NCBI GenBank assembly: GCA_963733195.1
Contig: CAVTCR010000081.1
Span: forward strand, 32,001 to 96,000
Length of the DNA stretch: 64,000 nucleotides
Origin: an uncultured delta proteobacterium
GTDB lineage: Bacteria > Desulfobacterota > Binatia > Bin18
Reading direction: 5' to 3'
A program made the translations under genes and the position numbers. The notes beneath the pieces were generated by a model, which searched no databases, was not told the DNA's origin, and was given only the letters and a program-made list of their open reading frames with translations. The first letter of the stretch is position 1, and each line of letters starts with the position of its first letter. Shown here piece by piece: positions 21,936-52,221 of this stretch.

Positions 21936-22688
21936 ATGGAGTGGATCGTTGACTCGCAAGCCTTGATTGGCCTGGTAACGTTGACCTTTCTGGAAATCGT
22001 GCTTGGCATCGACAATATCATCTTTATTTCGATTCTCGCTGGCAAATTGCCGAAGGAGCGGCAGGACCGGGCCAGGCAGATGGGCCTGGCCCTGGCGATG
22101 ATTATGCGTATTCTGCTGCTGCTGTCGTTGAGCTGGATCGCCCGCTTAACCGAGCCCCTGTTTACGGTATTTCACGTTGCCATTTCGGGGCGCGCGTTGA
22201 TTTTGCTGGGCGGCGGCCTGTTTTTATTGGCCAAGAGCACGTATGAGATTCATGAAAAACTGGAAGGCGAGACCGCCCACGCCTCAGCTACAGGCAAAGC
22301 CTCATTTAGCAGTGTCATCACGCAAATCATCCTGCTCGATATCGTGTTTTCGCTCGATTCGGTCATCACTGCGGTTGGGATGGCCAACCAACTGTGGGTC
22401 ATGGTGACGGCCGTGATCATCTCCGTCGTGATTATGTTGTGGGCGTCTGGCCCCATCAGTGCCTTTGTCAACCGCCATCCGACCGTCAAGATGCTGGCTT
22501 TGAGCTTTCTCTTACTGATTGGCTTTTCGCTGATGGCAGAGGGGTTAGAACTGCATATTCCGAAAGGCTACATCTACTTCGCGATGGCGTTCACCGTTTT
22601 CGTAGAGATGCTGAATCTGCGGCTGCGCGCGAAGGCCGAGCCCGTGCACCTGCGCGAGCCATACGCAGCTGTGTCAAACAAAGAGTGA
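21936..22688 (+). CDS. TerC-family integral membrane protein
   Basis: LEIVLGIDNIIFISIL, DIVFSLDSVITAVGM, HPTVKMLALSFL, KGYIYFAM. Confidence 0.93.
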   Translation: MEWIVDSQALIGLVTLTFLEIVLGIDNIIFISILAGKLPKERQDRARQMGLALAMIMRILLLLSLSWIARLTEPLFTVFHVAISGRALILLGGGLFLLAKSTYEIHEKLEGETAHASATGKASFSSVITQIILLDIVFSLDSVITAVGMANQLWVMVTAVIISVVIMLWASGPISAFVNRHPTVKMLALSFLLLIGFSLMAEGLELHIPKGYIYFAMAFTVFVEMLNLRLRAKAEPVHLREPYAAVSNKE

Positions 22689-22731
22689 GCAAACAAAAAC
22701 GTAAAAGGCTGTCTGAGAAGCAAGAGGTCAA

Positions 22732-22788
22732 GTCATTGCGAGCGGAGCGAAGCAATCTTTGCCCGAAACAGAGACTGCTTCGTCGTTG
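22732..22788. repeat. Palindromic repeat (GTCATTGCGAGC..AGCGAAGCAATC family)
   Basis: Same family as the complete element at 52099-52183. Confidence 0.6.
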
Positions 22789-22842
22789 AAGCCTGTCCTA
22801 AGCGGAGAGAAAAAGATAGACACCGCTCGGCCCTCCGCACAT

Positions 22843-25188
22843 TTAAGGAAATAATTGTTGGAAACGGCCAAGATGAGGAACCAGGTCTCGCCGGACCAGT
22901 CTTCGACGCCGTCGTTGTCGGTAACAACAAAGGTGCGGCCACTACTGGTAATCGCAACGCCTTCTGGCTTGTCGGTGATCCAGCCTTTAGTCGCCTTGAG
23001 ATCGGGCAACATGTTATACACAGACTTCTCGCTGCTGTTGATCAGATTGTCGGCGCCGCATTGGGTTTGACCTTGACCAGCGTCTTCAGGGCAGCGAAAT
23101 CACCAGAAAGGTTATCGCGTTCAAGAACGACATACGAACCATCTGGCGCGCGGGTGATCTCGGACAGGCCGACCCAGGCAGCATTGGCTGGCAGCGGTGC
23201 CAGTTCCCAGGCGATCTACTCCCAAGTATCAGCTATCTGGATCGTAGATCCAGATGCGGGTGCGGTTCGGTTCGTTACGTGAGTTGAAATCGCCAGCATC
23301 GTCGTCAAGATCTTCGCATTTTTTGCTGGCGTGGTATAGTCCCAGCCACGTTGCTGGGCAACGAGTAACTTGTAGCTACTGCCGTTACCAGGCAGCACTG
23401 CCACGCCTTCGAAGCCTGAGCCTAGTGTCCCTCTGCGGGTAGAAGCCGCTCGGCATGCGATAATCTCTGCTGGGAAGGCCCACTTCCTCAATGACGTTTC
23501 CGGAGAAATCGACTTGCAACAACAGATTCGGCCGCGAATCGCTGGCATTGCCTTCGCTGGCAATCCACAAGGTGCGGTCCGGTGCAATCGCAATGCCTTC
23601 CGGATCATAGTCCCCGGTACCGCCACGAATGGTCAGCGACTCGGTGATCACTGCCGGTTTTTCTGAAACATCGATGCGGAAAATATTGCTTTGGCTATAA
23701 TACGAGTCCCATACCGCCAGTAGGGTGGCAGGCTGGCCCGGAACGGCGACCATGCCAGACAGTGCCGACCACGGGATCGGCGAGCCATTGACATCATCCG
23801 AGACGATCTGCGGTAGGTCGGCTGACCAGGTTTAGCTGATAGATCATGATGGTAGAACGCACACCGAAGCTCGGATCATCTTCCTCGCCAGAGGCGATCA
23901 GGAGATTGCGCGAGGGAATAGCAAGCACTCCTTCCGGGCCTAGCGGTCCAGGCAACAATTGCTTGAACTTCGGACGGGCACCGTTAACCTCGTACACCGC
24001 AATGAAGCTACCACGCTCGGAGCCGACAAAGAGATAATCGTCGTTGCCGAAACTACCAAATTCAATCGCTTCCGGTTCAGTGCCTTTATTTAGACCGGAC
24101 TTCCGGGTAGTGGCCGTACTGCACGGCGATTTGTTCTAACGATGCCCCGCTATCGAACACTACGTTACCATTACGGTCGAACAGTGAGAACCCGCGCCTT
24201 CCGCCAAACAGGTCCCTTCGTTCGCCTTAGCGATAAAATATCGCGCCGTGGCGGCCATTGCGAAACAAGACAACAGCGTCCGGTTCGCGCGCTACGTTGG
24301 TTAACGTTTCGGTAGGGAAATGATCCGTCCTCGGTCTTGTCGATACCGTTTAGTGTGACTGAGCCGGCGGTGAAATGTTTTATCACACCCCCGTGACAAG
24401 ATTGACGATGACAATGTGACTGTTCTCCTGTAGCGTCACCACAGCTTCATTATCCTCGTTAATGTCGACGGACTCCGGTTCCGGATCACGCCCTCCATAG
24501 CTGGCAAGACGGTGAAGCATCAACATCTCGGATCGCGGCGCTCCCAGGTCGTTGCATTCGTGCCACCAACGATATCGACGATAGCAAGATAACCAGGAGG
24601 CAGTTGCGGCAGCTTCACTTCACACCATTGACTTCGACGTCTTCATCGCATTCATTCTCAATGGCGATGGCAACGTACTTCCGTCCCGGCTGATCTTGAC
24701 GGAGACGGCTAACCGCCGAGATCGATGCTATGCACGATCGCCGCGGAATAGTAGTGATATGGACCACAGCAGCTTGCCGCTCGGATTAATGAAGCGGTGC
24801 TGGTATTAACGGCGACCAGCGCGTATTATTGCCAAGCACGTCAACCGAGGTCGGTTCGCCACCCATCGCAAGGACCCCAGTCGGCGCGGAGTAGATTGAT
24901 CGGTAATGTCGACAAAACCGATTTGCTTGCTGGGCTGTCGGTATAGATCGGCGTGTTGCCGTCACGCGTGGCAGCAATGATTTCTGATATGTCGTCTTGC
25001 CGTTTGGTAGCGCCATATTCACGTAGTTGCCAATGTCGACACCCGTTGAAAATCTCGCCTTGTTATCATGATTGCGGAAATCATTAATGACTTCCGATCA
25101 TCCCCAAGCCCAAAGGCGAACTGGGCGTGGCGGCAGCGCCCGCAATAAACAGAGTTGTCAAGTAAATTCCGGTGTTTTTCTTCTGCAT
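22843..25188 (-). pseudogene. Secreted alkaline-phosphatase / phytase-like esterase beta-propeller protein; heavily frameshifted (pseudogene or poor consensus)
   Basis: Fragments GGEPTSVDV, LPGPLGPEGVLAIPSRNLL, YDPEGIAI, WIASEG, GFEGVA, DKPEGVAI, VVTDNDGVEDWSGET; ATG 25188 after GAGGAG. Confidence 0.75.
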
Positions 25189-26399
25189 AGGTACTCCTCT
25201 CGATTTCAGATGTTCGATCTATCTCGGTAGTAGTCACAATTGGAGAGGGCATATGATGTCTCCGGTATGTTGTATCAATATGCACACTCGTATGACATCC
25301 ACTTGGGGGTGACGAACCACACTGCTCGGCATTCGTTATGCACACCCAGTTATAAGTTCTTGCTCCGGCAGGGGGGGGGAAGGGCTGCAGAGCCACAGGG
25401 ATTAGGTTTGGTGGTGACGCGAGAGGCCGTCGCTGTCATCAACTTTCGATCCGTCCTCGTCAACCGTTCACATAGGTAGCGTAAGGTCCCTCCCCGCACC
25501 CGATGACTAAGTCTCGTGTGACATTCCTATACGACCATTGTTCTGATATTCTTTTTGTAAATATCACACTGAGAATGTCTTATTTTGAAAGAGGGTTTTA
25601 TGCGTCAAGGTGTAGCAATACCAGTGTCGCGGCTGTTCTCTGGGCATTTTCCTATCAGGCGAGATGGTCTCCGCCGGCGATGATAGTAGCAGTAGAGGGA
25701 AAGGAAAGAGAGGTAATCGAGGTGAGGAACTCTGGCTGCGGAGAGGTTTTGGGCAGGATCGGACACGGCCGGAACATGCAACTCGGCCGCGCCCGTTCTC
25801 TGTGGTCGACAGAATGCGTGCCGCCCACTCGGGGAACGCTGCCGACAGTGCAATAAAAGTCGTTCAACTGAATTCGTTTTTCGATAGATTAACCGTGGGG
25901 GCACACCTCTGCTGATTCCCGAGCACACCAAGGAAAGTAGATCGAGACAGTAGCAGCATGGGCACTCGTATTCTTGAAGTGACGTAACCTACAAGATACA
26001 ACTCATCTGACGTCACAATAAATGTCGATTAACATCTCGACGAACAACATTCGTGCTGCTCCATTGGCAGGCAGAAGTGCACGAAGCCGTCGATTAATAC
26101 AGCGAAACTACCCGGCACTCGCACCTCCGCGCAAGTACTCTGTGCTTTCTACAAGCAAAACTACGTTCACGAACTCAAACCTGAAAGGAAAAATCGGACG
26201 CGTCTGACCCTCGGGAACTACCGTACGGGTATCGACAGAACCGCGAACTATGACGACCTAATATATATAGGACAAGGGGAACGCTGTTGAGCCACAAGGA
26301 AAGTGTCGGGCTGGTGTCAAGTTTCTCGGCGCCGAATTTGCGCCCAAACTAGAAGGGCCCCGACCGTCATCACCCCAACCTGCAAGATGAGGAGGTGTT

Positions 26400-27090
26400 C
26401 AACAACCAGGAACATACAAAGAAGATGATAGAAAGATCCAGAACGACGATGTCAATCCTTCCCAGGGAATGTCTTGGCCCAATCTTGACTGTGCGATGTC
26501 TGTCTACTGGATACGAGAAGCAGCCGAGTTCGGCGGGAGAGCCGTGTTCCTCGATGATGCCAATGTCCCCAGCAAACTTCCGATACTGGCTGACCTCCAA
26601 ACATGCAGAAAGCAATGATCTCAACATTTCAGCCCCACCCATGTAGCGCTTGCTGACAGTAGAGCAACGGACGGATCATCCCTTCCCGGTACGCCCGGAA
26701 CGCTGAGATTCGCTCACCTCGATGCTGTCGCCTGGACGCTGGAGCGCTCGGGCGACCATCATCGAGGAATGTTGCCGAACCAAGGGTACCGCGAGCCCCA
26801 TCGATTCTACTACCAGTGACACTCGATGCCCTGCGTAACAACGGTGACATCCTGACGACACCTGAGACGTGTTAGCTTCGGCAGATTTCCACATCACGGC
26901 ATCTTCTCCGACTGGTCTGCAACAGTCGTCTGCTATGCAAACTGTAACGGATGAAGATGACAACTCAAAAACGATGCAGCGCGGATCTTGCTCGCTACGC
27001 CCACTCGTAAGTCAAGGACCACCTCCCGTTCAGCCAGGGCCTATCCTGTCCAGAAAGAAAACAGAAGGTGTCTGTGATAGGATGCTCCTA
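26400..27090 (-). pseudogene. Possible degraded HAD-family phosphatase downstream of gnd
   Basis: Only scattered frame-broken similarity (PIT..LF.LD.IG..GV.LT; FVSS; I.LDLS); position fits a gnd-HAD arrangement. Confidence 0.25.
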
Positions 27091-27101
27091 CAACCGTTTC
27101 A

Positions 27102-28176
27102 TCACTCATCGTGCGAACATTCGGCGTGGCCTGCGTATTCGAACCACGTCGCCGGGGTTCTTTTCTTCAGCAAAGTCAGGTTTCCTGGCCGCATGCGAGC
27201 TGAAGCACCTGATACCGGCGCGAGACCCTGAGGCACACAGCGGGCGGCCTTCTCAAATAGCAGCAGTGATCTACGACGCCCCTCACCTGAATCCGAGACA
27301 CGCCCCGAGAAATTTGCCAAGTTGTTACCGATTTCTCCTCAGAGCAAAGCAAGATTAAATCCGACGAGCCACGAACCACGACACTGCCGCCCGCCACACT
27401 TCAGCAATATATGGAAGAAGTTAGCGAATGATACTGATAATGCTACAGATTGAGTAACAGTGTCTTATTTCAGCATCCGCTTTCCGGTACTCCTTCCCTC
27501 TCGTGGCAGTCTACCGTGAGATATTGAATCCTTCGGCGTAGGCCGCCATCAGGCCGTACTTCGATGCCGTTGTTGCCGCCCATTTTTTGACGAATGCCCA
27601 GCCCCAGACAGCCACCAGTGCAGATAATTTCCTCCTCCACTGTTCCCGAACATTTGCATGCCCAGGAGTGCGAGAAGGTACGCATCTCTCACCCGGGCCA
27701 ACGTCTCGGGAATCGGAATAAGGGTTTCTTGAACTCCCTGTTCAGGTACCACCAAATAATGAGACGATGACCAACCACCTCCAGGCCCAGATGCCAAACT
27801 GATGCCGAAGACATCGAGATAGTGAATCCCCTTGACTTTGAGATTGTTCGAGCCACGGATGTCGTTCAAATGTAATATCAATCTCCGCCGTCGATCACAA
27901 TGTAACTATGTGCTGGAGACGAGGAGCAAAATCGTCGGGAGCGTTCTCGTCGACCACCGCCTCGCACCATCACCCAGACTGCCCGTGGTGGAGTCGAATC
28001 GCTGGATGGATTCATTTACTATGGACGATGTTTCCTACAGCCCCTTCATGAACAAGCATCTGCACCAGTACATAGGATTCATGTCAAAACGACGCATAAA
28101 TGGTTCACCACGTAAGAGCCAGACGGCACCATGTACCCATTCTGCCAAGCCCAATCATCCCCAGTTCTTGCATCAT
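27102..28176 (-). pseudogene. gnd: Decarboxylating 6-phosphogluconate dehydrogenase (short type); heavily degraded
   Basis: Frame-broken motifs ELGMIGLGRMG, PRAVWVMV, IVIDGG, KGIHYLDV, GAGH.VK...NGIE.YGLMAAYAEGFNI, FSGRVSDSGEGR, FEYAGH. Confidence 0.75.
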
Positions 28177-28362
28177 CAATATCCTTTCTCACTGTTCTTC
28201 TGACATTTTTGTCTCTTTCATTGCAAACAAAGTGTCTCAGAGAAGAGCAAGCACGCGTGTGGTGAGCAATCATCAAAATCACTACAGTCGTCGCAATGAT
28301 ACACACGGTACAAGAACTGCGTAGATCACTTCTTTTACTGATATTCTTGCATGCGCTCTAAC

Positions 28363-28461
28363 TTATAGAAGTGCTCAGTATGTGAAGTAGTAGTGAAGCC
28401 GGAACACTGTACAGACTTCATCGAGGAGTTTCGGTCGTTGACTTCTCGTCGTGTCAGGCAT
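28363..28461 (-). pseudogene. intI: Integron integrase N-terminal remnant
   Basis: My manual translation MPDTTRSQRPKLLDEVCTVFRLHYY-(frameshift)-HTEHFY matches the IntI N-terminus pattern (PKLLD.VR..LR..HYS..TE..Y). Divergent from the cassette array. Confidence 0.7.
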
Positions 28462-28504
28462 ATCAGGGCCAGTCATCGCGTCTTGAGATTGTTGAGAATA
28501 GAAA

Positions 28505-28581
28505 CAGGGCAAAACTGCCCAAAAACCCGGTTCATATCGCATTATCAGGGCAAAATGGCAAGTTAATCAATGGTTAGCCGC
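28505..28581 (+). other. Putative attI site
   Basis: Direct repeat CAGGGCAAAA at 28505 and 28546, then core GTTAGCC at 28573; lies between intI and the first cassette. Confidence 0.55.
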
Positions 28582-28622
28582 TGGCTTGGCTTATTCAGCA
28601 ATGTCTGCAAAAGTATGATCGG

Positions 28623-28856
28623 ATGCACTTTGAGATTATTGGAGACATTACTGACATTGAACCGATTGCAACTGGACCCAGTATCCGAATCCTCCCGTTT
28701 CTTCGCAAGCGCTATGGGAGAGGGCGATGGCGGAAACTCAAAGGAAAAGCCCTGGTGCGGCTTGCGGATGGAACCGTCCGGCGCGCCGAACTCCATTGGT
28801 TTGAAGCGCATGGCATCGGCAAACGGAAACTGCGGATCAAACGCTTCCTGGACTAA
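28623..28856 (+). CDS. Putative toxin (77 aa, basic) in an integron cassette
   Basis: WRKLKGKALV...AELHWFEAHGIGKR; first gene of a compact two-gene operon. Confidence 0.7.
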   Translation: MHFEIIGDITDIEPIATGPSIRILPFLRKRYGRGRWRKLKGKALVRLADGTVRRAELHWFEAHGIGKRKLRIKRFLD

Positions 28857-28861
28857 AGACT

Positions 28862-29095
28862 ATGCCTACACGAGTAAAACCCAAGCGACGATTTGCGATT
28901 TGTATTCGGGCCGATGACTCTGATTTGCTGACGCCCCGTCGGATTTACGAAATTCTCCCTGACGCAGACTCGGCCAAATCCCAGTACGTTCGGGTGATCG
29001 ACGATGAGGGCGAGGATTATTTATATCCGGCTTCATATTTTGTGGTTGTAGACTTTCCACCAGCAGTGGAACAAGCCTTATTGCAAGCGTCGTGA
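28862..29095 (+). CDS. Putative antitoxin/immunity protein (77 aa)
   Basis: LTPRRIYEIL...YVRVIDDEGEDYLYP; starts 5 bp after the preceding ORF. Confidence 0.7.
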   Translation: MPTRVKPKRRFAICIRADDSDLLTPRRIYEILPDADSAKSQYVRVIDDEGEDYLYPASYFVVVDFPPAVEQALLQAS

Positions 29096-29110
29096 CATCC
29101 CGAAGTTGTC

Positions 29111-29217
29111 GCGGCTAACAAACGTCCTGGCAGCGGACGCGGCCCCTGTTGCGGATTCTGCTGAATCGTGAAAAGGCAGCGGTTGGGGGCCTTGCCGGCT
29201 GAGGGCAGACGTTAGGC
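29111..29217 (+). other. attC site (integron cassette recombination site)
   Basis: R'' GGCTAAC (29113) ... CAGCGG / CCGGCTG inner arms ... R' GTTAGGC (29211). GCGGCTAAC is the exact reverse complement of GTTAGCCGC at the cassette start (28573). Confidence 0.8.
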
Positions 29218-29282
29218 TCCTTCGGCGGAGAATGACAGAAATCTCTGGATCTTATTACAATAGCGAAGGGTAAGGAGGTGAT

Positions 29283-30216
29283 ATGGATGTTAGGTCTCAT
29301 CCCTAATCGCGACAACTCGCACTGGTGATTTAGCCGCACTCGCTCGTCGTACAGAAACGATATGGGCTTCGACTCGCTCTGGATTCCCAGAACACTCGTG
29401 CTCCCCAGCGGTTCCCTTTCCCCGTTATCCTATTTCCTTCGTGGCCAGAGCACTATGGGCGCTGGGTCGATCCCTTTGTGGCGCTCACCGTGGCGGCAAC
29501 TGCGACCACAAGGCGACTCAAATTGGCCACCGGGGTGTTTGCCTCTTGCCCTAGCGCGACCCTCTGGTGACGGCCAAGGTCGTCCTGAACTCTGGACTAT
29601 TATTCTGGAGGGGGCGGGTTACTTGAGGCGTGGGGGCAGGAGGGCTCAAGGAAGAACTCGAAGTGATGGGGACGCCATTCCGATTGCGCTGGCAGCGGTT
29701 GCGGGAGACGGTGGAGGCGATGCGCGTCCTCTGGACGCAGGCAGAGGCGAGTTATATAGTGGGCTAAACTGGTGCAGTTTCCCGCAGTGCGGTGCGAGCC
29801 CAAGCCGGTTCAACTGGGCGGTCCCCCGATCTTGTTAGGCGGACATGGGCCGAAGGCGCTCGAACGGGTAGCGAGGAGTTATGATGGATGGTGTCCAATT
29901 GTTGTGGAGCCACAAAGTTTTGCAGAGGCGGTGACGATCCTGTGCCAGCTCACGCGCGAGGCGGGACGCAATCCGGAGGCATTGCAACTGAGTCCCTGTG
30001 TTGACCCTCAAGAAGGGGAATCTGTCCGGCGACACTCTGAAGGCGTATCGAGAGGCCGGAGCCACCCGGGTGGTGCTCCTTTCCCAACACATCGCGAGCG
30101 AGATGGCTGATGGGCAGGCAGCAGCGTGGATTGAGCGGCTGGCTCCTATCGTTGAGCGGGCACGACCTCTTATAAAGGAGGCTTCTTGGACAGCTAAGAT
30201 AATAGCAGGGGCGTAA
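29283..30216 (+). pseudogene. LLM-class (luciferase-like, F420/flavin-dependent) oxidoreductase; heavily frameshifted
   Basis: MGFDSLWIP, DPFVAL, KLATG, PKPVQLGGPPILLGGHGPKALERVARSYDGWCP, AYREAGATRV. Confidence 0.75.
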
Positions 30217-48921: not shown

Positions 48922-50142
48922 ATGAGTAACAAACCACCACTAGACGGTATCCGTGTTGCTGACTTTTGCTGGGCCTGGGCTGGTCCGTATGGCGCCCTGC
49001 AACTCGCGCACCTCGGAGCAGAAGTCATTCGTATTGAAAGCGAAACCCGTCCGTGTCCGTCACGTCAGATTCCTCCATGGGCAGATAATCAAAAGGGAGG
49101 ATTCAACCGCTCCGGGTATTTTAATCAGTACAATCAGGGTAAACGCTCACTAACGCTTAATCTGAAAAAACCTGAAGGGCTTGAGTTAGCGAAGAAAGTC
49201 GTCGCTAAAAGTGACATTGTGACCGAAAACTTTGCCGGTGGCGTGATGGATAAGATGGGCTTGGGCTATGAAGTGCTACGAGCGATTAAGCCCGACATCA
49301 TCATGATCTCGTTGTCGGGTTACGGTGCGACTGGCCCAGAAAAAGGCTATGTCTCCTACGGCCCGCCACAAGTTGCGCTCAGCGGTATGTCATCGTTGAC
49401 TGGATATAAAGATGACCAACCTCGACAGGCAGGGTTTTCGTATGGTGATCCCAACGGTGGAGTTCATGGCACATTCGCTGTGATGTGTGCACTGCTCCAT
49501 CGCGCGAAAACTGGCAACGGACAATACATCGATCTTTCTCAACGTGAAGCCTGCGCCATGTTGCTCCCCGAGGGGATCATGGAATATGCGATGAATGAGA
49601 CCCAACCACCACGAAACGGGAACCGTGATCCCTACATGGCTCCACATGGCGTATTTCGTTGTAAGGGGGCAGATCGTTGGGTCAGCATCGTTGTGGGCAA
49701 CGAAGAGGAATGGCAACGGTTCTGCAAAGCCATCGGTCAGCCTACGTTAGCAACCGATGCGCGCTTCGCGACACTCGCGGCCCGCAAAGAAAATGAAGAT
49801 GCACTTGAGCAGATTATAACGACGTGGACAAACGAATTATCACCGGATGAGGTCACGCAAAAATTGCAACATGCCGGAGTTGCGGCCTATCCCACTCTCG
49901 ATGGTAATGACATGCTCGCCAACCCACATGTAGCTGCACGTGGCTATTTTGTTGAACTTGAACATGCAGAAGTGGGAAAGCGCCGACATTTGGGGATTCC
50001 GTGGAAAATGTCACGCACCCCTTGCGAGATAAGCCGTCCAGCGCCACTCTTCGGGCAAGATACGAACTATGTGTTAGGGGAGATTCTTGGCTTGAATAAC
50101 GACGAGATCGCAATACTGAGAACAAAAGAAGTGCTTGTCTAG
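48922..50142 (+). CDS. Family III CoA transferase (CaiB/BaiF)
   Basis: WAWAGP, LGAEVIRIES, NQGKRSLTLNL, YGDPNGG, APLFGQD. Confidence 0.93.
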   Translation: MSNKPPLDGIRVADFCWAWAGPYGALQLAHLGAEVIRIESETRPCPSRQIPPWADNQKGGFNRSGYFNQYNQGKRSLTLNLKKPEGLELAKKVVAKSDIVTENFAGGVMDKMGLGYEVLRAIKPDIIMISLSGYGATGPEKGYVSYGPPQVALSGMSSLTGYKDDQPRQAGFSYGDPNGGVHGTFAVMCALLHRAKTGNGQYIDLSQREACAMLLPEGIMEYAMNETQPPRNGNRDPYMAPHGVFRCKGADRWVSIVVGNEEEWQRFCKAIGQPTLATDARFATLAARKENEDALEQIITTWTNELSPDEVTQKLQHAGVAAYPTLDGNDMLANPHVAARGYFVELEHAEVGKRRHLGIPWKMSRTPCEISRPAPLFGQDTNYVLGEILGLNNDEIAILRTKEVLV

Positions 50143-50189
50143 ATCAGACCACATGACATTCGTATACTTTACACTACGATCCCTCGGGC

Positions 50190-50486
50190 GTGTCATTCTG
50201 AGTCCCCGAGAGTGCTGCGCACTCAGCGAATGGGCAGAAACAGCACGAGCATTCCCGTCCGTCATTTCCGCCCTCGCCGTCGCGAGGGCAGGCTCCGGCG
50301 GGAATCCAGTCTTTGGCCCCTGGATACCGGGTCTCGCGTTGCTCGCCCGGAATGACGAGCTGGTCGTTTTCGTCATTCCAGCGAAAGCTGGAATCCAGGA
50401 GGTGTGGTGCGGGTTGGGCATTTTGTTTCTGAGCAGCGGAGCGAAGAATCTCTCTGAGAGACCCTTCGTTTCACTCAGGGTGACAA
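50190..50486. repeat. Cluster of palindromic intergenic repeats
   Basis: GTCATT..., GGCGGGAATCCAG, CTGGATACCGGG...CCCGGAATGAC, GTCATTCCAGCGAAAGCTGGAATCC, CTGAG...CTCAGGGTGAC units. Confidence 0.65.
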
Positions 50487-50752
50487 CTTTGGTGTGCCAA
50501 TTTTGTGTGTTTCGATTTAGCTCAGTCCCCAAGAGCCTGACTCAGTGGCACACGTTTCACGTTTTAACCAAGAATTTTTGCCGGCAACTTCGCTTATCCC
50601 GGCCTGTTCTTCTGTAGGCCGGGATGAGGTCGGAGACCGTTCCCGGCTTCCTTTTTGCCTCTACAAACCCGCTGCAAGACTTGCTATGCCTATGAATGCA
50701 GGAGTGACACCCCGGCGGAGCGTCTCTACATAAGACAAGGGGGCACTTGCCT

Positions 50753-51970
50753 GTGGGGAATCACGTTTTCATCTGTTACGCGCACGAAGATTGGAACTTC
50801 GTCCAAAAGAATCGCAATCAAGCTGAAGGAGCGTGGAGTTCCTATCTGGTTAGATGAATGGGACATTCCTCATGGTGCGAACTGGAATGAAACGCGAGAT
50901 AACGCGCTCTACGATGCTGCGCAGTGTCTGGTCATTCTCTCGTCTGCAGCCGTAAATTCTCAGCAGGTCCAGGCAGAATGGGTGACCGCTCTGGAGGAGA
51001 AGAAACCCCTCGTTCCTATTCTCTATCAGACATGCCGGATTCCAAGCAGATTGCGGCTTATACAGCGCTTTGATTTTACCAGTGGCGGTTTAGAAAATGA
51101 GGAAATTCTAGAAGCCTTGCTCCGTGCTCTGGGAGGTCAACAAGAGCCGTCTGGTTCCCAAGCAAAAAAAGTCTCGTAAGCAAAGCCGGAGGCCAACGTG
51201 AGGAGACGACGAGAGCGCCAATCATCACCTCACCAACTACCCTCTACCCTATCAGAGATCACTAATAGTATTGGTATGAAACTCATTCTCATCCCCGCGG
51301 GAGAGTTTCTGATGGGTTCAGAGAATGGTCGTGCCGATGAAAAGTCAGTGCGACGAGTGCAAATCAGTAAACCCTTTTACCTGGGGAAATATCCAGTCAC
51401 GCAAGCGCAGTGGGAAACGGTGATGGGTAATAGTCCGAGTCGTGTAAAAGGTGAGCCAAATCGACCGGTAGACAGTGTTTCATGGAATGAGGCTCGGGAG
51501 TTTCTCCGGAAGCTGAGTGCACGTGAAGGGGGGAAGCCGTATCGCTTACCGACGGAAGCGGAGTGGGAGTATGCCTGCCGTGCGGGATCTACGGGAGCGT
51601 ATTACTTTAGTGACAACGAGGCAATGCTAGGAGAATACGCTTGGTACAGTAAAAATGTTTTTTGCTCAGGTATTGCAAAAGCTCTCTTCGCGAGTGGGGG
51701 TTCGCACCCGGTAGGGCAGCTCAAACCAAATGATTGGGGGTTGTACGACATGCTCGGCAATGTGTGGGAATGGGTGCAGGACTGGTATGCGGCAGATTAC
51801 TACAAGCAACGCCCAAACCCGGACTGTGATCCTCAAGGGCTTGACAAAGGGAAATATCACGTCCTGCGCGGCGGTTCGTGGTGCAATGTTGCCGAGTACG
51901 TCCGCGTGGCCTGCCGCGACTGGCACGGCCGGCTACCGCTACGTCTTTCGGTTTTCGGTGTGCCCAGTAG
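50753..51970 (+). CDS. TIR domain + FGE-sulfatase (CLec-fold) protein; split by indels and one in-frame TAA (51177-51179)
   Basis: VFICYAHED...WLDEWDI...VILS..AVNS..VQAEW (TIR). ITNSIGMKLILIPAGEFLMGS, YRLPTEAEWEYACRAG, GLYDMLGNVWEW, VLRGGSW, GFRCAQ* (FGE). Both ORFs are in the same frame. Confidence 0.85.
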
Positions 51971-52021
51971 CTTGTAAAAGGTTCTGGATTCTGAGTTCTA
52001 GAATTCTGGATTCTGTAGGGT

Positions 52022-52038
52022 CCAGGGCGGAGTCCTGG
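52022..52038 (+). other. GC-rich hairpin with GGA loop downstream of the candidate DGR variable region
   Basis: CCAGGGC-GGA-GTCCTGG followed by a T-run. Confidence 0.55.
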
Positions 52039-52098
52039 TCGAATTTTTTCATACTACAGTAAGAGTTCTCGTAGTCTGTCTATGTAATGATAAAGGAT

Positions 52099-52183
52099 TG
52101 TCATTGCGAGCGTAGCGAAGCAATCTTTTTGGAGATATTGTGTCGCCGAGATTGCTTCGTCGCTAATACTCCTCGCAATGACA
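52099..52183. repeat. Palindromic repeat element
   Basis: 12-bp terminal IR TGTCATTGCGAG/CTCGCAATGACA, inner CGAAGCAATC/GATTGCTTCG. Confidence 0.75.
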
Positions 52184-52221
52184 GGAACTTGCGGTTTGTA
52201 GACACACAAGGAGGATCCACA

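Follow-up and report, generated by a model that had tools for sequence, protein, structure and literature searches.

The gene described here lies on the plus strand at positions 50753-51970 of a 64,000-nucleotide stretch of contig CAVTCR010000081.1 (assembly GCA_963733195.1) from an uncultured delta proteobacterium of the Binatia lineage. This stretch, G000:C81:32001-96000 in our numbering, is called the window in the following; G000 is its source genome and gene coordinates are window positions. The gene joins an N-terminal TIR_2 domain to a C-terminal domain of the formylglycine-generating enzyme (FGE)-sulfatase family, and its last 110 bp bear the signature of a diversity-generating retroelement (DGR). 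We consider it probable that the locus is a TIR–lectin gene which was written by a DGR and which is now an orphaned target with its variable region (VR) as a frozen record. The VR is most likely frozen, as G000 is without a cognate template repeat (TR), reverse transcriptase (RT), and bAvd.

Judged from the sequence, the last 110 bp are a DGR-type VR, beyond chance. When the two TRs of the related genome G010 were compared by blastn to the whole G000 genome, the sole match was the VR (51859-51973), with 74% identity over 119 nucleotides (nt) and 70% over 113 nt. In addition, a consensus was formed from four TRs, the two of G010 and one each of the genomes G013 and G027, and columns were kept where at least three of the four agree. 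Relative to this consensus 14 of 21 adenine columns are changed in the VR (7 kept, 2 more gapped) versus 3 of 54 non-adenine columns (51 kept, 4 more gapped), an adenine specificity with a Fisher p = 1e-7. The initial annotation of this DNA had proposed the C-terminal ∼110 bp as a DGR target, and these adenine-specific changes relative to the TRs of other genomes bear the proposal out. The same bias is found with a TR of the same genus (G002:C15), where 18 of 27 adenines are changed versus 12 of 83 other positions (p = 6e-7). The four TRs read, for example, VVRGGSWNNEARNVRVANRNRNEPGNRNDNIGFRCAQ*, and the NNC and NNT codons which had been listed for the VR do exist and sit opposite AAC, AAT, or other adenine-bearing codons of the relatives' TRs. 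Adenine makes up 9.6% of the VR (here taken as 51857-51970) versus 26.6% of the remaining gene, which places the VR in the lowest 0.23% of all 114-nt windows across the 64 kb; the depletion is strong and confined to the last 114 nt of the gene. All 10 relatives checked have the same depletion, with an adenine fraction of 0.10-0.16 in the last 117 nt versus 0.23-0.27. Finally, the VRs end in CCCAGTAG and the TRs of G010 and G002 in CCCAATAG, and it is there that the similarity between VR and TR ceases.

The locus comprises the following features:

50753-51970, plus strand: gene with TIR_2 and FGE-sulfatase domains, VR at the C-terminal end
50753..50807, plus strand: GTG start and first TIR beta-strand GNHVFICYAHEDWNFVQK, in a frame different from that of the remaining TIR domain
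50805..50808, plus strand: frameshift site at a run of four A; a contig of soil run X2 has one base fewer
50808..51176, plus strand: remaining TIR_2 domain (PF13676) and linker, with the conserved Glu of VQAEW (11 of 11 domains)
51177..51179, plus strand: in-frame TAA in the linker, with a seven-A run nearby (51164-51170)
51198..51860, plus strand: FGE-sulfatase (PF03781), the C-type-lectin-fold scaffold
51657..51689, plus strand: in-frame insertion of 11 residues, VFCSGIAKALF, missing in three homologues in the alignments
51861..51970, plus strand: DGR-type VR ending in TAG (51968-51970), with the VR-type 3′ end
51927..51946, plus strand: VR gaps causing two frame shifts, of one base after 51927 and after 51930 and of two bases after 51945
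51980..52015, plus strand: spacer of TTCTGGATTCTG-like direct repeats between stop codon and hairpin
52022..52038, plus strand: GC hairpin of 7 pairs (5 G-C, one G-T) with the loop GGA, then TCGAATTTTTT

The two domains are readily recognized by Pfam. TIR_2 (PF13676) matches 50742-51176 with an E value of 3.6e-21 over profile positions 14-121 of 122, and FGE-sulfatase (PF03781) matches 51198-51974 with an E value of 3.8e-49 over positions 5-238 of 255. As the latter match stops at position 238, the FGE-sulfatase domain is shortened at its C-terminal end. The domain has the C-type lectin fold, which is the fold used by DGR variable proteins, and the scores of the NCBIfam equivalogs are far under their cut-offs (e.g., PvdO, 101.6 vs 500). 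The C-terminal region, where an FGE proper (SUMF1) would have its catalytic cysteine pair and copper site, is taken up by the VR. The closest solved structure to the intact orthologue of the same-genus genome G001 is TvpA (2y3c, E 3.1e-33), a DGR variable protein of the FGE type. The TIR domain begins at protein residue 3, and nothing obvious by way of a signal peptide or a membrane segment was noticed in the translations, on which no predictor was run. The Glu of VQAEW, which the initial annotation held to be retained at the catalytic position, corresponds to a Glu that is invariant in all 11 aligned TIR domains of the TIR-FGE family; we take it to be equivalent to the catalytic Glu of the solved TIR NADases. 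Over the insertion region a contig of soil run X3 (51667-51799) is identical to the window.

The retroelements that match this VR are found in related genomes. We compared G001 and G002, which belong to the same genus as G000, and the further related genomes G010, G013, and G027. Many TIR-FGE genes came up in a protein search of 40 related genomes; they are 55-69% identical and their open frames encode 380-445 amino acids (aa). A DNA search showed that the similarity of the relatives extends past the stop codon. On contig G010:C29 the VR of a 393-aa TIR_2 plus FGE protein differs from a repeat 470 nt downstream at 19 of 114 positions; all 19 mismatches are at TR adenines in the orientation of the gene, and a bAvd gene (PF22296) lies between VR and TR. 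On G010:C14 all 12 mismatches are at TR adenines and a 373-aa RT (RVT_1; G010:C14:91370-92488) comes next. G013 and G027 each contribute one more adenine-rich TR. The loci G010:C29 with C170, G010:C14, and G013:C134/C200 resemble the gene of G000 in their TIR_2 and FGE-sulfatase architecture, in the hairpin and the spacer repeats, in the 3′ end typical of VRs, and in the VR framework (RGGSW..VRVA.R...PG.R...GFRCAQ*). In those loci TR, bAvd, and RT stand beside the target, in contrast to G000 where none of them is found. The initial annotation had made its proposal depend on a template repeat or an RT in this or in related genomes, and it is not refuted on this count, since genomes of the same family have RT, bAvd, and TR beside TIR-FGE genes with purely adenine-specific mismatches. 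Among the 41 genomes searched, RTs at least 40% identical to the G010 type are present in G010, G013, G027, G001, and G036, and no such RT was found in G000 or G002.

At G010:C29 we also observed a 115-aa ORF (open reading frame) which by motif resembles a GIY-YIG nuclease (L051:670-1014) between TR and RT; the RT runs over the contig edge and probably continues onto G010:C170, which would place the DGR between two TIR-FGE targets. The same VR class together with the hairpin ends a 476-aa Trypsin_2 plus FGE protein (L052:2231-3658, G002:C18) and a protein of 1010 aa in which Pfam recognizes no further domain (L054:3454-6483, G010:C14). Several N-terminal effector types thus end in the same VR class and hairpin and are therefore served by one DGR class.

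Downstream of the gene, the GC hairpin with the GGA triloop which the initial annotation had noticed is indeed present. It begins 51 nt past the TAG, and its stem is kept in 16 of 16 aligned loci, namely this one and 15 related lectin genes which include both proven DGR targets and in which the distance from the gene is similar. The stem core CCAG..CCTGGT is invariant across the loci and the loops vary (GGA, GAA, GGAA, GAGA, GTGA, GGTA, GGGA, AAA, GTT, TTT). Between the syntenic loci of G000 and G001 the hairpin stretch is 97% identical, as compared to 83% for the flanking genes. The TTCTGGATTCTG-like spacer is common to the VR downstream regions of the relatives (L040, L041, L042, L051, L055) but is missing behind the TRs. 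Within the 6.95 Mb of G000 the strict hairpin motif occurs here and at C26:18166 only, the latter not behind the end of an FGE-type gene. On these alignments the hairpin is a conserved element of the TIR-FGE target family. Guo et al. (PMC3240598) showed that homing in phage BPP-1 depends on a GC hairpin located downstream of the VR and on its stem structure; the hairpin or cruciform described there is likewise a GC-rich inverted repeat downstream of the VR and beyond the TR/VR homology. The phage hairpins in that report have stems of 7-10 bp and 4-nt GRNA loops and lie 4-34 bp from the VR, as compared to 7 pairs, a 3-nt GGA loop, and 51 nt in G000; the hairpins of the TIR-FGE family have loops of 3-4 nt, not all of them GRNA, and a spacing of ∼40-55 nt.

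No DGR was found in the G000 assembly, which comprises 6.95 Mb in 87 contigs (the shortest of 14 kb) and is 93% complete: neither a TR nor a DGR RT nor a bAvd. With the VR or the whole gene as blastn query, the 87 contigs returned self matches only, and neither the window nor its contig contains an RT or a template repeat, as the initial annotation had said for the window. Its further suggestion of a remote target, served by a DGR elsewhere in the genome, was not upheld by the 6.95 Mb, as its proposed blastn of 51861-51970 against the whole genome likewise gave self matches and no template repeat. NCBIfam and Pfam assign ten of the 12 RVT_1 matches in G000 to the group II intron maturases and one to the retron-type RTs; the twelfth (C6) is 98.5% identical to a group II copy. 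The DGR RT of G010, used as tblastn query, gave only matches of 25-27% at group II RT loci and two others that are short and weak. With the bAvd proteins of the relatives no tblastn match was obtained in G000, and the family PF22296 has 0 matches there, compared to 10 for the Avd-like fold PF05635. The RT on C35 was tried as a DGR RT and ruled out, being a group II intron maturase, and a 130-nt repeat upstream of it, which had been taken for a TR with several targets, has mismatches without adenine bias. We infer that the DGR has been lost from G000 and is not merely unassembled. Apart from this, several contigs of G000 (C1, C3, C24, C35, C55, C63, C71, C83, and others) carry a large paralogous gene family with copies of ∼2.6 kb that are 65-85% identical; the same contigs carry many group II introns, some of them interrupted, and on C1 an insertion of ∼2 kb separates the two parts of an RT.

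In the two other genomes of the genus the syntenic orthologues are intact (427 aa in G001, L079:1024-2304 on G001:C393; 424 aa in G002, L080:471-1742 on G002:C209; the corresponding window positions are 50753-52049), and the linker is open in both. The TR of G002:C15 (C15:1534-1661, minus strand; L162, G002:C15:34-3161) is 94% identical to the G010 TR and is placed at the end of a truncated FGE-like ORF. Where the RT would be expected, a 337-aa ORF is found on the other strand which by its appearance we label transposase-like. As this ORF takes the place of the RT, the retroelement appears to be decaying or lost in the genus while the target genes persist. The DGR of G001 (G001:C1191) was considered as a source and rejected, as its TR is of another type (RGGNFNNGTNAGVFALNANNAPSNSNNNIGFRCGR) that matches neither the VR of the G000 gene nor that of its orthologue in G001. 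The three orthologues of the genus share one hairpin but end in different classes of VR plus spacer, GFRCAQ*, GFRLLRTVS*, and GMRVVVLPS*. It looks as if the whole cassette between lectin core and hairpin had been exchanged, and as these three classes lie between a conserved lectin core and one hairpin, one receptor locus might conceivably be reassigned from one DGR to another.

Taken together, of the characters expected of a DGR target the gene has the adenine pattern, the C-terminal VR in a CLec/FGE domain (CLec, C-type lectin), and the 3′ end with the hairpin, and it lacks a template and an RT in its own genome. Several observations weigh against an orphaned, DGR-written gene. Some non-adenine mismatches remain and the cognate TR was never seen; the residual mismatches arise because the TRs compared come from other genomes. 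The hairpin has a G-T stem pair where the 15 relatives have G-C, its distance to the VR falls outside the phage range given above, and the 90 nt downstream region, folded in isolation, is no better than shuffles (z = -1.55), so that the case for the hairpin rests on its conservation. The hairpin resembles a terminator, as TCGAATTTTTT comes after it, and a hairpin with a T-run would also fit a plain terminator. Finally, the DGR may sit on a piece absent from the assembly, given that the latter is 93% complete and that its shortest contig is 14 kb.

The reading frame bears on the question whether the gene is a decaying relic. As assembled, the gene is interrupted at at least four places within 1.2 kb. 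The initial annotation had flagged the TAA at 51177 but had passed over the other interruptions, and all pieces of the C-terminal peptide it gave exist in the DNA but are spliced from three reading frames: VLRGGSWCNVAEYVRVACRDWH in the frame of the FGE domain, GYRYV in a second, and GFRCAQ* in a third. At the 5′ end, tblastn with the orthologues of G001 and G002 assigns VGNHVFICYAHEDWNFV to frame +1 but the rest to frame +2; in a 151-nt contig of soil run X2 (50761-50912), otherwise identical, the A-run at 50805 has one base fewer. The TAA is not removable by one indel. As it is followed by GGAGG (51188-51192), 5 nt, and GTG at 51198, the sequence makes a split into two cistrons conceivable. 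In the VR, both one-base gaps lie opposite TR adenines and all neighboring non-adenine bases match in the best pairwise alignment. These gaps could be the product of error-prone reverse transcription or a consensus artifact of a mixed population; frameshifted VR ends are seen in 2 of 29 other homologues whose ends were read (P0016, P0029). In soil runs X3 and X4 there are contigs with a one-base loss at 51526, which would break the FGE frame. At most 0.16 of the sampled words were present in any sequencing run, and four runs yielded short contigs only, none of which lies over the TAA or extends across the VR with near identity. When metagenome contigs were scanned for exact patterns, 0 matches were obtained.

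Accordingly, the gene may be a true pseudogene in which the TAA and the VR gaps are as genuine as the frameshift at 50805, a reading which we regard as quite possible, if somewhat short of evenly balanced. The density of interruptions speaks for it, especially when compared to the five uninterrupted neighboring ORFs, as do the TAA, the different one-base loss in the X3 and X4 contigs, and the DGR, which is absent in G000 and appears broken in the same genus. On the other side, the X2 contig lacks the extra base, and both G001 and G002 have an intact syntenic orthologue. Moreover, in G000 even rpoB falls into 3 frames and rpoC into 3-4, with one TGA inside (G000:C71:133111-141235), and the conserved rpoB sequence visibly changes frame. 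This points to frequent indel errors, which make pseudogene calls based on frameshifts unsafe anywhere in this genome. Part of the frame interruption is likely assembly error, and as indels in this assembly cannot be trusted to decide the matter, we give roughly even odds to an intact and to a decayed gene.

The frame interruptions may also be read the opposite way, namely that the target is still being diversified by a cognate DGR (TR, RT, and bAvd) which the organism or a mobile element carries and which the assembly lacks, the VR gaps being consensus artifacts from a population in which many VR variants coexist. In favor of this reading, the hairpin and the 3′ end of the VR are both still present, the two gaps stand exactly opposite TR adenines between matching non-adenine bases, two other homologues have frameshifted VR ends as well, and indel errors occur even in rpoB and rpoC of an assembly that is 93% complete. 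Nevertheless, we think this unlikely in view of the 6.95 Mb without TR, DGR RT, or bAvd, of G002, which is 100% complete and in which no RT of this class was found, and of the DGR of G001, which is of another class with a TR that does not match. We likewise give little credence to a combination of active VR hypermutation, with an unassembled or mobile DGR supplied in trans, and the swapping of VR cassettes between paralogues, according to which the gaps at TR adenines would be the trace that heterogeneity has left in the consensus. It is hardly credible that the gene is an ordinary FGE-sulfatase paralogue without DGR history, with RGGSW...GFRCA as a family motif between whose ends the loops diverged normally and the hairpin as a mere terminator, since in spite of a RGGSW/GFR framework that is family-wide and includes enzymes, of FGE-domain relatives in many phyla, and of a hairpin plus T-run meeting the terminator pattern, the differences to the TRs are adenine-specific (p = 1e-7) with a depletion confined to the last 114 nt, the spacer and the hairpin are common to proven VRs and not to TRs, and the hairpin is more conserved than the flanking genes between G000 and G001 (97% vs 83%).

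Returning to the orphaned, DGR-written gene, we suggest that the locus would encode a two-domain cytoplasmic sensor with an N-terminal TIR domain and a C-terminal ligand-binding domain of the lectin fold (FGE type). Its last 110 bp would have been written by a DGR of the class still present in the related genomes: RT and bAvd would copy an adenine-rich TR, the TR adenines would be misread, and the cDNA would replace the VR up to the shared 3′ end, with the GC hairpin ∼50 nt downstream as the putative structure for target recognition. If the proven loci and the literature are a guide, a ligand may be bound by the lectin tip and the TIR domain may give the output, so that ligand binding by the VR would lead to activation of the TIR domain.

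The five neighboring ORFs mentioned above are of 430, 406, 417, 345, and 284 aa. The intergenic regions on either side of the gene (50140-50740 and 52087-52220) contain short repeats dispersed genus-wide. The part 50135-50550 has dozens of matches of 80-96% in G001 and G002, and one of the repeats encodes a pseudo-peptide of the CHCERSEAI type (52087-52130). Farther away, 7.5 kb of the window (22686-30216) are without an open frame of at least 200 aa and contain short ORFs only, some of which resemble fragments of a single gene in different frames (e.g., 22728-23753, minus strand); the GC content is ordinary there and no rRNA or other Rfam match was found.

The combination of an effector domain with a DGR-diversified lectin fold has precedents. 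Three reports describe DGR targets in which a C-terminal CLec domain is combined with TIR, CHAT, kinase, or NTPase domains, in Thiohalocapsa PB-PSB1 and other multicellular bacteria (PMC10907252), in cyanobacteria (PMC7517822), and as FGS-domain conflict systems (PMC7159879). Remote and incomplete DGR loci are also described there, and the authors read the targets as antigen sensors of conflict systems. The gene of G000 likewise has an N-terminal effector or signaling domain, TIR included among the published ones, before the lectin fold. Compared to the published targets it is a minimal two-domain TIR-CLec protein, with no NTPase, vWA, or MoxR partner seen adjoining. The idea of an adaptive immune-like receptor put forward in the initial annotation is therefore not new, as TIR-CLec and other effector-CLec targets are already described in these three reports, whose supplementary tables may already list the present family; the G000 locus is probably an orphaned member.

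TvpA of Treponema denticola (variable protein 1, 2y3c) has the same FGE-type C-type lectin fold with a C-terminal DGR VR, but no TIR domain in the 2y3c match. This surface protein has a DGR of its own.

With regard to the distribution of the family, 53 of the best 120 homologues listed have a TIR_2 domain, and their names say nothing beyond 'formylglycine-generating enzyme' or 'SUMF1/EgtB/PvdO family'. The closest homologues are labeled 'Candidatus Binatia bacterium' or 'Deltaproteobacteria bacterium' by their sources. Near-identical natural variants were not found by protein search, in which the best foreign match is 82% identical over 64% of the query, and a search of wider genome contigs yielded distant FGE relatives only (at most 51% identity), from many phyla and none of the close family. 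Thus, the minimal TIR-FGE form is common in public data but blandly annotated. The conserved hairpin offers a simple marker for spotting orphan targets. In similar scans, 'pseudogene' calls from the G000 assembly are unsafe, as rpoB and rpoC are frameshifted as well. Target genes evidently persist longer than their DGR, given that G002 has a TR but no RT was found there and that G000 is without either. The locus adds a soil lineage to the bacteria in which a TIR output domain is combined with a lectin tip written by a DGR.

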